From an uncultured cyanobacterium (lineage in GTDB: Bacteria; Cyanobacteriota; Cyanobacteriia; Cyanobacteriales; CAWUOF01), in contig CAVUSO010000001.1 in the NCBI GenBank assembly GCA_963744145.1, positions 2,464,001 through 2,528,000 of the forward strand: a DNA stretch of 64,000 nucleotides, written 5' to 3'. Below are positions 48,050 through 54,973 of the stretch, in pieces. Numbering within the stretch: the first letter of the stretch is position 1; the number at the start of each line of letters is the position of its first letter. The position numbers and the translations under genes are program-made. The notes beneath the pieces were generated by a model. The model had not been told where the DNA came from, searched no databases, and saw only the letters and a program-made list of their open reading frames with translations.

Positions 48050-51000
48050 ATGCAGAGGTTAATAACAGCATTATTAAGAATATTATCTACAGAAATTACA
48101 TTCTTTAAAAGCAATAAAGGTAATACTAATATTAGTAATCCGGCTGATCCAATTCCTGTTATTAATCAGAATCAGGATAATTCTTCAAACACTAATACTA
48201 ATATTAGTAAGCCTGCCGATCCAATTCCTGTTATTAATCAGAATCAGGATGATTCTTCAAAGTCTTCATCGGTTCAGCCAACTATCTCTAGTGGGGTGAA
48301 TAGCAATTATCAAATCCAACAGGAAATCTACGAGGGAGTGAAAATTGCCTATCCGCAAATCAGTCAGTTAGGTAATGACCAGATTGAGCAGAAGATTAAT
48401 ACTTTAATCAAGAAGGATGCTTTAAGTGTATTAGATGGGTATCAAGGGAATTTACACCAGCTCATATTAGATTTAAAGTATGAAGTGAAATACCAAGGTA
48501 GTGATTTTTTAAGTATCAAGTATTTAGGTTTTGCTTCTAAAAAAGGAGCCGCCTATCTCAGTAATGTGATTTACACGACCACGATTGATTTATCCCAGCA
48601 AAAGGTGGTAGCATTAAAGGAATTAGTCACAGTAGATGACAATTTTGTTGAGAAATTCAATGCTGGAAAATATGTCCCTTATAGCGCCTCATCAGATTTA
48701 CAAACTCAAGCAATTCTAGAACGTGCTAAGGGGGAAAGTAATCAGTCGATTAAAGAAAGGTTGAATGATGAGCAGGCTAAGTATTATTTGACAGGAAATT
48801 CTCTCGTAGTTAGTAGTGAGGTGATCCATGCCCTCGGAGATCACTTTGAACTAGAATTAGATTATCCAGTGACTCCATCGGTTCAATCAACTGTCGCCGG
48901 TACCCTCAATAGTAATTATCAAATCCAACAGGAAATCTATGAGGGAGTGAAAATTGCCTATCCGCAAATCAGTCAGTTAGGTAATGACCAGATTGAGCAG
49001 AAGATTAATACTTTAATCAAGAAGGATGCTTTAAGTGTATTAGATGGGTATCAAGGGAATTTACACCAGCTCATATTAGATTTAAAGTATGAAGTGAAAT
49101 ATCAGGGTAGTGATTTTTTAAGTATCAAGTATTTAGGTTTTGCTTCTAAAAAAGGAGCAGCTTATCTCAGTAATGTGATTTACACGACCACGATTGATTT
49201 AGCCCAGCAAAAGGTGGTAGCATTAAAGGAATTAGTCACGGTAGATGACAATTTTGTCGAGAAATTCAATGGGGGGAAATATGTCCCTTATAGCGCATCG
49301 TCGGATTTACAAACTCAAGCAATCCTAGAGCGTGCTAAGACGGAAAGTAATCAGTCGATTAAAGAAAGGTTTAATAATGATCAGGCTAAGTATTATCTGA
49401 CGGGAAGTTCTCTCGTAGTTAGTAGTGAGGTGATCCATGCACTTGGGGATCACTTTGAACTAGAATTGGATTATCCTGTGATTCCATCGGTTCAACCAAC
49501 TGTCGCCGGTACCCTCAATAGTAATTATCAAATCCAACAGGAAATCTATGAGGGAGTGAAAATTGCCTATCCGCAAATCAGTCAGTTAGGTAATGACCAG
49601 ATTGAGCAGAAGATTAATACTTTAATCAAGAAGGATGCTTTAAGTGTATTAGATGGGTATCAAGGGAATTTACACCAGCTCATATTAGATTTAAAGTATG
49701 AAGTGAAATATCAAGGTAGTGATTTTTTAAGTATCAAGTATTTAGGCTTTGCTTCTAAAAAAGGAGCAGCTTATCTGAGTAATGTGATTTACACTACCAC
49801 GATTGATTTAGCCCAGCAAAAGGTGGTAGCATTAAAGGAATTAGTCACAGTAGATGACAATTTTGTCGAGAAATTCAATGGGGGGAAATATGTCCCTTAT
49901 AGTGCATCGTCGGATTTACAAACTCAAGCAATCCTAGAGCGTGCTAAGACTGAAAGTAATCAGTCGATTAAAGAAAGGTTGAATAATGATCAGGCTAAGT
50001 ATTATCTGACGGGAAATTCGCTCGTAGTCAGTAGTGAGGTGATCCACGCTCTGGGAGATCACTTTGAACTAGAATTAGATTATCCAGTGACTCCATCTGT
50101 TCAACCAACTGTCACCGGTCCACTCAATAGTAATTATCAAATCCAACAGGAAATTTATGAGGGAGTGAAAATTGCCTATCCGCAAATTAGCCAGTTAGGT
50201 AATGACCAGATTGAGCAAAAGATTAATACTTTAATCAAGAAGGATGCTTTAAGTGTATTAGATGGATATCAAGGGAATTTACACCATCTCATATTAGATT
50301 TAAAGTATGAAGTGAAATACCAAGGTAGTGACTTCTTAAGTATCAAATATGTAGGTTTTGCTTCTAAAAAAGGAGCAGCTTATCTCAGTAATGTGATTTA
50401 CACCACCACAATTGATTTAGCCCAGCAAAAGGTGGTAGCATTAAAGGAATTAGTCACGGTAGATGACAATTTTGTCGAGAAATTCAATGGGGGGAAATAT
50501 GTCCCTTATAGTGCATCGTCGGATTTACAAACTCAAGCAATTCTAGAGCGTGCTAAGACGGAAAGTAATCAGTCGATTAAAGAAAGGTTGAATAATGATC
50601 AGGCTAAGTATTATCTGACGGGAAGTTCTCTCGTAGTTAGTAGTGAGGTGATCCATGCCCTCGGAGATCACTTTGAACTAGAATTAGATTATCCAGTGGC
50701 TCCATCCGTTCAACCAACTGTCACCGGTCCACTCAATAGTAATTATCAAATCCAACAGGAAATCTATGAGGGAGTGAAAATTGCTTATCCGCAAATTAGT
50801 CAGTTAGGTAATGACCAGATTGAGCAGAAGATTAATACTTTAATCAAGAAGGATGCTTTAAGTGTATTAGATGGGTATCAAGGGAATTTACACCAGCTCA
50901 TATTAGATTTAAAGTATGAAGTGAAATATCAAGGTAGTGACTTTTTAAGCATTAAGTATTTAGGTTTTGCTTCTAAAAAAGGAGCAGCTTATCTCAGTAA

Positions 51001-54000: not shown

Positions 54001-54973
54001 GTATTTAGGCTTTGCTTCTAAAAAAGGAGCCGCCTATCTTAGCAATGTGATTTACACCACCACGATTGATTTAGCCCAGCAAAAGGTGGTAGCATTAAAG
54101 GAATTAGTCACGGTAGATGATAATTTTGTTGAGAAATTCAATGCTGGAAAATATGTCCCTTATAGCGCCTCATCAGATTTACAAACTCAAGCAATCTTAG
54201 AACGTGCTAAGGGGGAAAGTAATCAGTCGATTAAAGAAAGGTTGAATGATGAGCAAGCTAAGTATTATCTGACGGGAAATTCTCTCGTAGTCAGTAGTGA
54301 GGTGATCCACGCCCTCGGAGATCACTTTGAACTAGAATTGGATTATCCCGTGATTCCATCGGTTCAACCAACTGTCATCGGTACCCTCAATAGTAATTAT
54401 CAAATCCAACAGGAAATTTATGAGGGAGTGAAAATTGCCTATCCGCAAATTAGTCAGTTAGGTAATGACCAGCTTGAACGCAAGATTAATACTTTAATCA
54501 AGAAGGATGCTTTAAGCATATTAGATGGATATCAAGGGAATTTACACCAGCTCATATTAGATTTAAAGTATGAAGTGAAATATCAGGGTAGTGACTTTTT
54601 AAGTATTAAGTATTTAGGTTTTGCTTCTAAAAAAGGAGCCGCCTATCTCAGTAATGTGATTTACACCACCACGATTGATTTAGCCCAGCAAAAGGTGGTA
54701 GCATTAAAGGAATTAGTCACGGTAGATGACAATTTTGTCGAGAAATTCAATGGGGGGAAATATGTCCCTTATAGTGCATCATCGGATTTACAAACTCAAG
54801 CAATCCTAGAGCGTGCTAAAGCGGAAAGTAATCAGTCGATTAAAGAGAGGTTTAATGGTGATCAGGCTAAGTATTACTTGACAGGAAATTCTCTTGTGGT
54901 TAGTAATGAGGTAATCCATGCACTTGGGGATCACTTTGAACTAGAGTTGGACTATCCGGTTGTAAAAAAATAG
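48050..54973 (+). CDS. Giant protein of 11 tandem 203-aa DUF4163/DUF3298-like (PdaC/RsiV-like) domains
   Basis: Single open frame with an exact 609-bp period; I.YPQI..L....E.KIN..IK, YEV.Y.....LSI.Y.G, GAAY, YYLT..SLV...HALGD motifs. Start is GTG 48041 or ATG 48050. Confidence 0.88.
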   Translation: MQRLITALLRILSTEITFFKSNKGNTNISNPADPIPVINQNQDNSSNTNTNISKPADPIPVINQNQDDSSKSSSVQPTISSGVNSNYQIQQEIYEGVKIAYPQISQLGNDQIEQKINTLIKKDALSVLDGYQGNLHQLILDLKYEVKYQGSDFLSIKYLGFASKKGAAYLSNVIYTTTIDLSQQKVVALKELVTVDDNFVEKFNAGKYVPYSASSDLQTQAILERAKGESNQSIKERLNDEQAKYYLTGNSLVVSSEVIHALGDHFELELDYPVTPSVQSTVAGTLNSNYQIQQEIYEGVKIAYPQISQLGNDQIEQKINTLIKKDALSVLDGYQGNLHQLILDLKYEVKYQGSDFLSIKYLGFASKKGAAYLSNVIYTTTIDLAQQKVVALKELVTVDDNFVEKFNGGKYVPYSASSDLQTQAILERAKTESNQSIKERFNNDQAKYYLTGSSLVVSSEVIHALGDHFELELDYPVIPSVQPTVAGTLNSNYQIQQEIYEGVKIAYPQISQLGNDQIEQKINTLIKKDALSVLDGYQGNLHQLILDLKYEVKYQGSDFLSIKYLGFASKKGAAYLSNVIYTTTIDLAQQKVVALKELVTVDDNFVEKFNGGKYVPYSASSDLQTQAILERAKTESNQSIKERLNNDQAKYYLTGNSLVVSSEVIHALGDHFELELDYPVTPSVQPTVTGPLNSNYQIQQEIYEGVKIAYPQISQLGNDQIEQKINTLIKKDALSVLDGYQGNLHHLILDLKYEVKYQGSDFLSIKYVGFASKKGAAYLSNVIYTTTIDLAQQKVVALKELVTVDDNFVEKFNGGKYVPYSASSDLQTQAILERAKTESNQSIKERLNNDQAKYYLTGSSLVVSSEVIHALGDHFELELDYPVAPSVQPTVTGPLNSNYQIQQEIYEGVKIAYPQISQLGNDQIEQKINTLIKKDALSVLDGYQGNLHQLILDLKYEVKYQGSDFLSIKYLGFASKKGAAYLSNVIYTTTIDLAQQKVVALKELVTVDDNFVEKFNGGKYVPYSASSDLQTQAILERAKAESNQSIKERLNDEQAKYYLTGNSLVVSSEVIHALGDHFELELDYPVAPSVQPTVTGPLNSNYQIQQEIYEGVKIAYPQISQLGNDQIEQKINTLIKKDALSVLDGYQGNLHHLILDLKYEVKYQGSDFLSIKYLGFASKKGAAYLSNVIYTTTIDLAQQKVVALKELVTVDDNFVEKFNGGKYVPYSASSDLQTQAILERAKAESNQSIKERLNDEHAKYYLTGNSLVVSSEVIHALGDHFELELDYPVTPSVQPSVTGPLNSNYQIQQEIYEGVKITYPQISQLGNDQIEQKINTLIKKDALSVLDGYHGNLHHLILDLKYEVKYQGSDFLSIKYLGFASKKGAAYLSNVIYTTTIDLAQQKVVALKELVTVDDNFVEKFNAGKYVPYSASSDLQTQAILERAKAESNQSIKERLNDEQAKYYLTGNSLVVSSEVIHALGDHFELELDYPVTPSVQSTVAGTLNSNYQIQQEIYEGVKIAYPQISQLGNDQLERKINTLIKKDALSVLDGYQGNLHQLILDLKYEVKYQGSDFLSIKYLGFASKKGAAYLSNVIYTTTIDLAQQKVVALKELVTVDDNFVEKFNGGKYVPYSASSDLQTQAILERAKAESNQSIKERFNDDQAKYYLTGSSLVVSSEVIHALGDHFELELDYPVIPSVQSTVTSTLNSNYQIQQEIYEGVKIAYPQISQLGNDQLERKINTLIKKDALSILDGYQGNLHQLILDLKYEVKYQGSDFLSIKYLGFASKKGAAYLSNVIYTTTIDLAQQKVVALKELVTVDDNFVEKFNGGKYVPYSASSDLQTQAILERAKGESNQSIKERLNDEQAKYYLTGNSLVVSSEVIHALGDHFELELDYPVAPSVQPTVTGPLNSNYQIQQEIYEGVKIAYPQISQLGNDQLERKINTLIKKDALSVLDGYQGNLHQLILDLKYEVKYQGSDFLSIKYLGFASKKGAAYLSNVIYTTTIDLAQQKVVALKELVTVDDNFVEKFNAGKYVPYSASSDLQTQAILERAKGESNQSIKERLNDEQAKYYLTGNSLVVSSEVIHALGDHFELELDYPVIPSVQPTVIGTLNSNYQIQQEIYEGVKIAYPQISQLGNDQLERKINTLIKKDALSILDGYQGNLHQLILDLKYEVKYQGSDFLSIKYLGFASKKGAAYLSNVIYTTTIDLAQQKVVALKELVTVDDNFVEKFNGGKYVPYSASSDLQTQAILERAKAESNQSIKERFNGDQAKYYLTGNSLVVSNEVIHALGDHFELELDYPVVKK
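48270..54960 (+). repeat. 11 x 609-bp near-identical tandem repeat
   Basis: The marker CAAATCCAACAGGAAAT recurs at 48311, 48920, 49529, 50138 ... 54401. Confidence 0.97.

Follow-up and report, generated by a model that had tools for sequence, protein, structure and literature searches.

A cyanobacterial gene encoding eleven tandem RsiV-fold modules, a candidate multivalent binder at the cell envelope

The polymer gene and its parts

We analysed a 64,000-nt window from an uncultured cyanobacterium (GenBank assembly GCA_963744145.1, contig CAVUSO010000001.1, positions 2,464,001 to 2,528,000 of the forward strand) and followed up one gene in it, whose product, hereafter the polymer, contains eleven tandem copies of one unit. 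The gene is a single uninterrupted open reading frame (ORF) on the plus strand, 48041..54973, encoding 2310 aa from a GTG codon; an alternative ATG start at 48050 gives 2307 aa, identical (100%) to database entry P0004, and is preceded by a purine-rich, Shine-Dalgarno-like sequence, AAGGGTGAG, at 48037-48045. An initial annotation of this DNA had given 2310 aa from 48050; that length fits the GTG start, whereas the position is that of the 2307-aa entry, and the coding sequence is given here as 48050..54973 (+, stop included) with GTG 48041 as the alternative. The frame is open only from 48014, with an in-frame stop directly upstream, so the polymer has no hidden N-terminal extension, and neither a frameshift nor a stop interrupts the 6.9 kb that follow.

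The N-terminal 20 residues (MQRLITALLRILSTEITFFK; 48050..48109, +) are amphipathic and weakly hydrophobic, and are homologous to the signal-peptide region of P0005, the closest relative of the polymer. Downstream lies a 72-nt x 2 tandem repeat (48121..48261, +) encoding a duplicated 24-aa spacer rich in N, Q, P and S (NTNIS.PADPIPVINQNQD.SS); the 85 residues before unit 1 contain no transmembrane (TM) segment. The protein is acidic (isoelectric point 5.1), has a mass of 257 kDa and, over 2307 aa, has no Cys, no Trp and a single Met, the initiator. Relatives have a median of 3 Cys/Trp/Met per module, with none in 7 of 85, and the lack of these residues in the polymer may reflect an oxidising extracellular location or may be due to chance in a single unit that was then copied eleven times.

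A script placed eleven in-register units at 48296 + 609*i. Unit 1 (48296..48904, 203 aa) comprises a module of about 190 aa and a 13-aa linker of P, T, S and V, and is followed on the same strand by unit 2 (48905..49513), which was modelled and used as query, unit 3 (49514..50122), unit 4 (50123..50731), unit 5 (50732..51340), unit 6 (51341..51949), unit 7 (51950..52558), unit 8 (52559..53167), unit 9 (53168..53776), unit 10 (53777..54385) and unit 11 (54386..54970). Ten periods are exactly 203 aa; unit 11 has 195 aa, ends in ...ELDYPVVKK and is the most divergent (mean DNA identity to the others 92.0%). The eleven copies of a 203-aa unit that the initial annotation described are thus present, the final one shortened, and its Pro/Thr/Ser linkers are recovered as the consensus YPV[TIA]PSVQ[PS][TS]V[TAI][GS][PT]. 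Tandem Repeats Finder reported just the 72-nt x 2 spacer repeat within the gene, and missed the array because the longest period there was 500 nt.

Divergence and selection within the array

Pairwise identity between units ranges from 92.8 to 98.5% in protein (mean 96.2%) and from 90.4 to 97.9% in DNA (mean 94.4%). The mean number of nonsynonymous substitutions per site (dN) is 0.018 and that of synonymous substitutions (dS) 0.243 (range 0.08-0.43), and codon position 3 holds 64 of the 86 variable nucleotide columns. Because dN/dS between units is 0.076, we regard this as a real gene under purifying selection; on its substitution pattern the array is selected coding sequence. The 20 amino acid positions that vary among units have a mean family conservation of 0.33, against 0.50 overall, and 30 of the 35 family columns that are at least 80% conserved are kept in all eleven units, including N35, S73, G78, Y164, T166, S173 and the segment H178-x2-G181-D182-H183-x-E185. 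Across 85 relatives H178, D182, H183 and E185 are 92-98% conserved and G181 is invariant (100%). Five changes from family-conserved residues are common to all eleven units: P88L, N96T, D109E, L152I and G171V.

All eleven units differ in DNA, the most similar pair being units 5 and 6 (97.9%), and adjacent units are slightly more alike than non-adjacent ones (95.5% vs 94.1%). The divergent last unit and the greater likeness of neighbours fit unequal exchange inside the array. With a mean dS of 0.24 and DNA identities of 90-98%, the amplification is not recent; the initial annotation had called it recent, which the dS range and these identities contradict. P0004 is the sole database copy; it lies on a contig of 7,634,710 bp and is a singleton in its own 90% cluster.

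The unit and its fold

In an hmmscan search the Pfam family PdaC (PF13739, the former DUF4163) matched eleven stretches of the polymer (223.1 bits, E 7e-67). Taken singly, units score 29.4-30.6 bits against a gathering score of 29.1, so that each belongs to the family by a narrow margin; the match covers unit residues 9-78, and PF13739 is also found at E <= 0.001 in 68 of 86 aligned family members. Nine other Pfam families were listed for the polymer without a single stretch passing alone, and were disregarded because they are sums of eleven weak repeated matches. PF13739 is thus the sole Pfam family with stretches that pass alone, which agrees with the absence of a catalytic domain noted initially; no polysaccharide deacetylase domain was matched by Pfam anywhere in the 2310 aa, and none of the known lysozyme inhibitor families (Ivy, MliC/PliC, LprI) was among the Pfam matches. 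The DUF3298 family (PF11738) matched neither the unit nor its C-terminal 113 residues at E <= 10, nor any of the 86 family members at E <= 0.001; the second half of the unit is too divergent for the Pfam model. The NCBIfam RsiV model NF052658 aligned unit residues 4-119 with model positions 81-199 (E 3e-6) at 26.8 bits, far from its equivalog cutoff of 250 bits. PADLOC anti-phage defence models gave no family for the unit at E <= 0.01, and phmmer of the unit against PDB sequences gave nothing significant.

The AlphaFold2 model of the unit, built on an 86-sequence alignment, has a pLDDT (predicted local distance difference test) of 90.2 and a pTM (predicted template modelling score) of 0.86; in the linker, residues 191-203, pLDDT falls to 58 and 45. 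A Foldseek search of this model against the PDB gave six matches at E <= 0.001, all of the RsiV-type fold, with 203-240 aligned columns and template modelling (TM) scores of 0.38-0.60, and over the whole length of the model. The best were 3cyg_A (E 6.4e-9) and 3cyg_B (5e-8), with TM-scores of 0.54-0.60, together with chains of the RsiV-lysozyme complex, 5jen_C (8.6e-8) and 5jen_A (2e-7), with TM-scores of 0.45-0.46; the DUF3298 structures 4e72 (2.6e-6) and 3s5t (5.2e-6) completed the six. Ranks 7-8 were taken by the non-catalytic N-terminal part of pneumococcal PgdA (E 5e-3 to 9e-3), and MPT64/Rv1980c (2HHI) matched at E 1.7e-2. Among BFVD viral structures there was no match to the unit model at E <= 0.001. 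The family profile run against PDB sequences reached 3CYG (6.5e-9) and nothing else, and did not reach 5JEN even at E <= 10. In the available text of the RsiV structural study, 3CYG, 5JEN, 4E72 and 3S5T are grouped together (PMC5014341). The unit is therefore, as modelled, a complete RsiV-type two-subdomain module. Of the DUF4163 plus DUF3298 composition first proposed for it, the first part stands by sequence in all eleven units and the second by fold only. The conserved GAA[HY]PxN segment falls roughly at the S169 loop of RsiV, a placement taken from the coordinate ranges of the NCBIfam alignment and hence approximate.

Relatives of the module

The family was surveyed by exhaustive phmmer of unit 2 against 1.84 billion representative sequences, which gave 885 representatives at E <= 1e-3, of which 393 reached E <= 1e-10. 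Among the best 150 of the 885, 147 had one module-length match, P0026 had two modules, P0083 a split match and the polymer eleven; no other protein with at least three modules exists among the representatives, because it would out-score the 81-bit tail of that list. A word-index homologue search found two relatives near in length, none at 357-2000 aa and only the polymer itself at 1270-4043 aa; it missed most relatives, and the exhaustive search is the informative one. Exact unit peptide patterns matched 115 stretches in genome contigs, none of them a relative, and neither the genome of the window nor its close kin turned up in that collection; a family alignment run against such contigs found only two loci, L001 in Pelotomaculum propionicicum and L002 in Syntrophomonas, at 43-44% identity, whose neighbourhoods have nothing informative in common. 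At L001 we noted, as separate observations, an AEP-TOTE primase-helicase gene (TOTE conflict system; 1672-4111) upstream of the relative, apparently split into 680 aa and 147 aa, and a large LuxR-type regulator and a MORN-repeat protein nearby.

Relatives are typically 240-280 aa long. A hydrophobic N-terminus is present in 138 of 151, the 13 others being mostly visibly truncated, and a lipobox, by a pattern of our own, in 92 of 151. All taxon labels obtained were Bacillota: Negativicutes (P0002), P. propionicicum (L001) and Syntrophomonas (L002). Atlas neighbour clusters also carry Bacillota labels, and Atlas feature neighbours of P0005 have PF11738 in 100% and PF13739 in 92%, both of which we treat as leads only. 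The initial statement that such domains are typically single-copy and from Firmicutes is borne out, since nearly all relatives have one module and the labelled ones are Bacillota.

When 30 longer relatives were scanned, 11 had PdaC only, 13 had no match and six had other recognisable domains: Germane; PG_binding_1 with LysM; choline-binding repeats; Cu_amine_oxidN1; F5/8-type-C/NADase_transloc; and PF07007 LprI. The domains in these six fusions are, by family, of envelope or cell-wall types. The last of them, P0088 (389 aa), carries PF07007 ("lysozyme inhibitor LprI", E 7.7e-21) C-terminal to the module and is the only fusion among the 30 that points to lysozyme. Longer relatives with N-terminal extensions do not look like anti-sigma factors, whether judged by eye or by Pfam.

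The closest relative, P0005, is a 254-aa protein with one module (55% module identity) and no lipobox. It shares both ends with the polymer: MSKLMFALLIILSMKI vs MQRLITALLRILSTEI near the N-terminus, and ELDYQVVNK vs ELDYPVVKK at the C-terminus.

The N-terminus and export

The polymer N-terminus aligns with the signal region of P0005, but has Thr, Arg and Glu at several positions that are hydrophobic there. The best 11-residue Kyte-Doolittle mean is 1.75 for the polymer, 2.89 for P0005 and 3.08 for the median of 151 relatives. The helical hydrophobic moment of the first 20 residues is 1.48, against 0.66 +/- 0.33 in shuffled sequences. The initial annotation had seen here an amphipathic N-terminus in place of a clear TM anchor or a classic signal peptide, and had called the export route unclear; these values support it on each count, the region being homologous to a signal peptide and of much lower hydropathy. 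Ancestry, family and composition point to the envelope, and export is inferred on those grounds, although it stays uncertain because the signal itself is weak.

Genomic setting and origin

The polymer gene is separated from the upstream cysZ-like gene by the intergenic region 47624..48049, and its flanking genes are ordinary chromosomal ones (trpE-like, GDSL hydrolase, cysZ-like, rsmB and ndhD/F-like), with kinases, hox, gap and kdp further out. Pfam scans of 24 neighbouring ORFs gave no transposase or integrase family, ARAGORN predicted no tRNA gene anywhere in the window, and the ORFs scanned from 43.1 to 64 kb include no sigma factor, the immediate neighbours being cysZ-like and rsmB-like.

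The window has 73 copies of the HIP1 octamer, GCGATCGC, none of them between 47587 and 55181, so that the HIP1-free polymer first reported is confirmed as an observation. Apart from eleven copies of one 609-nt unit, this gap contains about 0.9 kb of unique sequence. In the corresponding 1525 nt of independent sequence 1.97 sites are expected and the probability of none, P(0), is 0.14, compared with 5e-5 if the repeats are ignored; HIP1 is also absent from 8 of the 31 other ORFs of the window. HIP1 depletion as a sign of horizontal transfer was consequently rejected, and it lends no support to the foreign origin that the initial annotation had proposed, since P(0) is about 0.14 once repeats are allowed for and 8 of 31 native ORFs lack the octamer as well. 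A HIP1-free stretch built of repeats should not count as evidence of foreign DNA. The GC content of the gene, 0.373, is within the native range. Its codon-usage distance to the window pool is 0.208 (0.254 for one unit), where native ORFs have a mean of 0.135, a standard deviation of 0.035 and a maximum of 0.220; codon usage is at most mildly atypical. On the taxonomy of the family, the module may plausibly have come by an old transfer from a Bacillota-like lineage; the HIP1 gap does not support this.

Elsewhere in the window a 490-aa TPR protein (37673-39145, -) carries 102-nt (34-aa) repeats at 38435-38860, each with a HIP1 site (38442, 38544, 38646, 38748 and 38850, spaced exactly 102 nt); the octamer was copied along with the coding repeat there, the mirror image of the HIP1-free polymer. 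Downstream of the polymer, an RsmB-type 16S rRNA methyltransferase gene (55017-56375, +) starts 44 nt past the polymer stop; its product matches PADLOC mad2 (E 4.8e-21), most likely through generic methyltransferase similarity. Between it and the convergent ndhD/F-like gene lies a 97-nt x 1.9 tandem repeat (56464-56654), each copy of which forms an inverted repeat rich in GC (GGGCGAAGCATTCGGG / CCCGAATGCTTCGCCC); it might serve as a bidirectional terminator or be a dispersed hairpin element. The window also contains a full-length bacterial RNase P RNA of class A (31711-32107, +; 254.5 bits), its only Rfam match, a gene that runs off the window (59141-64000, +) and encodes a protein longer than 1619 aa that combines Ser/Thr kinase, AAA/STAND ATPase, GAF and HisKA domains, and two more Ser/Thr kinases at 6979-11007, one with Pilin_GH and TPR domains.

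Discussion

The explanation that we find probable, by a slender weight of evidence, is that the gene product is a selected "beads-on-a-string" protein acting as a multivalent envelope binder. The gene, its repeats, the selection on it, the fold, the family and the uniqueness of the architecture are shown by the results above, whereas export, multivalent binding and the class of ligand are inferred. The protein consists of eleven independently folded RsiV-fold modules, each with a PdaC-N/DUF4163 subdomain and a DUF3298-like subdomain, joined by flexible 13-residue linkers. The array would have arisen by internal amplification of one single-module exported protein, whose family otherwise consists of single-module lipoproteins, from Bacillota where labelled, and would since have been kept by purifying selection together with some concerted evolution. 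Each module would present the same working site, with conserved parts that include the GAA[HY]PxN and HAxGDHxE segments, and the polymer would bind one ligand at the cell envelope with avidity, this being the selected property. A peptidoglycan hydrolase is, by analogy with RsiV, the leading named candidate for that ligand, held with low confidence, and peptidoglycan or another envelope glycan is the next.

Several observations weigh against this explanation. We know of no ligand for this module subfamily. The best N-terminal hydropathy of the polymer (1.75) is below the 10th percentile of its relatives (2.31), with Arg and Glu inside the would-be hydrophobic core, and no lipobox, TM segment or recognisable secretion signal was found in the polymer. 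The PF13739 score of a single unit is barely over threshold, and the C-terminal half of the unit has no sequence-level family match at all. Two family-invariant positions, P88L and N96T, are altered in every unit, one of them within a conserved loop. A two-unit AlphaFold model from a shallow 11-row alignment reached a pLDDT of 59 and a pTM of 0.37, too poor to judge the packing of modules. The copy number of eleven comes from one assembly. In scans compared with shuffled sequences, no promoter- or terminator-like signal stood out beyond chance in 47624..48049, and no terminator-like site rose above shuffles between the polymer and rsmB.

The rival that survives best, though we think it unlikely, is that the polymer is a muramidase decoy or trap in which each module would occupy a lysozyme-type active-site cleft, as RsiV does, outside or inside the outer membrane; the muramidases so trapped would come from grazers, predatory bacteria, competitors or phage. 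The RsiV-type DUF4163/DUF3298 fold occurs widely and, to our knowledge, has lysozyme as its sole known ligand, in RsiV. Nanomolar lysozyme binding with 1:1 inhibition by RsiV is the only experimentally defined activity of the fold, and in the complex RsiV closes off the active site of lysozyme with a saddle and two loops (S169; P259/Y261), according to the available text of that study (PMC5014341). The unit model matches the RsiV-lysozyme chains (E 9e-8 to 2e-7), the NCBIfam RsiV alignment (model 81-199) includes the S169 loop region, the conserved loops are kept in all eleven units, and one relative of the 30 scanned, P0088, is fused to PF07007 LprI. That other relatives carry separate wall-anchoring domains would suggest that the module itself has a role other than anchoring. 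However, the unit scores 26.8 bits with the RsiV model where an equivalog needs 250, the family profile fails to find 5JEN at a threshold as loose as E <= 10, and the TM-scores to 5JEN are just 0.45-0.46. Rv1980c/MPT64 shares these domains with RsiV and yet does not bind lysozyme, so that not all DUF4163/DUF3298 proteins do, as the available part of the same study reports (PMC5014341), and because of this we keep the decoy as a minority reading. Moreover, the target of RsiV is an animal C-type lysozyme of uncertain relevance to a diderm cyanobacterium, export is doubtful, and no muramidase, sigma factor or peptidoglycan-modifying gene adjoins the polymer. In its boldest form, a first polymeric muramidase trap, that is, an 11-valent "lysozyme sponge" of an amplified Bacillota-type module placed in the periplasm or sheath by non-classical export, the idea is decidedly doubtful.

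A second rival, which we also rate as improbable, is a scaffold whose modules bind peptidoglycan or another glycan, as a targeting domain would in PdaC, the polymer serving a filamentous cyanobacterium as a long tether or adhesin in the periplasm or associated with the sheath. PF13739 takes its name from the N-terminus of PdaC, a MurNAc deacetylase, the fold bears a weak likeness to the non-catalytic N-terminal part of pneumococcal PgdA, and the fusion partners of relatives suggest the envelope; a beads-on-a-string build with an acidic, Cys-free composition, as in the polymer, is typical of surface proteins. Against these stand the weak export signal, the fact that glycan binding by the module domain is not known from experiments on any protein, and the LysM, PG_binding_1 and choline-binding repeats of relatives, which would be needless if the module bound the wall.

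It is very unlikely that the polymer is an enzyme or a binder of a small ligand such as a metal, with a putative site formed by His-x2-Gly-Asp-His-x-Glu and Asn/Ser/Thr/Tyr residues and its activity multiplied by the array: these positions are well conserved over 85 relatives (H178, D182, H183 and E185 92-98%, G181 100%) and kept in 11 of 11 units, but no catalytic family matched in Pfam or NCBIfam, and all six structural matches at E <= 0.001 are non-enzymatic or uncharacterised. An assembly artefact is unlikely, and an assembly-inflated repeat or a decaying, non-functional expansion is as a whole hardly credible, since the single assembly behind the copy number, the degraded look of the signal peptide relative to P0005 and the singleton status in databases are set against eleven units that are all distinct in DNA (best pair 97.9%), 6.9 kb without frameshift or stop, a dN/dS of 0.076 and a contig of 7.63 Mb.

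The interest of the polymer lies in being a natural 11-copy version of the module outside the phylum of its labelled relatives, and purifying selection acts on all of its copies. This is a strong hint that the binding site of the module is useful and that valency matters. The polymer is also a convenient object, in which a comparison of one with n units could tell what the lipoprotein subfamily, with its 885 representative clusters, binds. Should the ligand be a muramidase, this would be a new cyanobacterial way of resisting wall-degrading enzymes; should it not be, the fold would gain a new ligand class.

Comparison with known systems

The polymer belongs to the PF13739 family by sequence and to the RsiV-type class by fold. 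Like its units, the extracellular domain of RsiV, the anti-sigma-V factor of Bacillus subtilis (5JEN), has the DUF4163 plus DUF3298 fold (205 columns in Foldseek), and in sequence a weak homology is confined to the N-terminal 115 residues of the unit (E 3e-6). Unlike RsiV, which comes from a Firmicute and has one module, the cyanobacterial polymer has eleven modules and no cytoplasmic sigma-binding part, TM segment or adjacent sigV; lacking these features and the score, it is not an RsiV. Unit residues 9-78 match PF13739 as PdaC does, but the polymer, lacking a deacetylase domain, is not a PdaC.

Among solved structures the closest to the unit is 3CYG, an uncharacterised single-module protein of Fervidobacterium nodosum (17% identity), which is also reported as the best structural match of RsiV in the available text of PMC5014341. 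PA4972 (4E72), BF2082 (3S5T) and MPT64/Rv1980c (2HHI) are DUF3298 proteins that resemble the unit by fold, whereas the unit has no PF11738 match. By its family matches the polymer is not a member of the known lysozyme-inhibitor families: Ivy, MliC/PliC and LprI are small single-domain proteins, not homologous to it, and could at most offer a functional analogy, the occlusion of a muramidase active site. COG3895 (MliC/PliC) proteins are recorded from Cyanobacteria in the accessible text of PMC2267010.

In the available portions of published work on DUF3298/DUF4163 and on lysozyme inhibitors in cyanobacteria no such polymer is described, and, judged by title, none of the DUF3298/DUF4163 papers listed is on cyanobacteria. 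Also close to the polymer are the single-module lipoproteins of the subfamily itself (P0005; P0007-P0014; L001; L002; P0002), true homologues along the entire module (29-55% identity, E down to 6e-52) that share its conserved positions, but that have one module each (two in P0026) and mostly a lipobox signal peptide. Giant repeat proteins are common in cyanobacteria; what is new here is the eleven-module architecture of a module found elsewhere once or twice per protein, and its presence in a cyanobacterial host.

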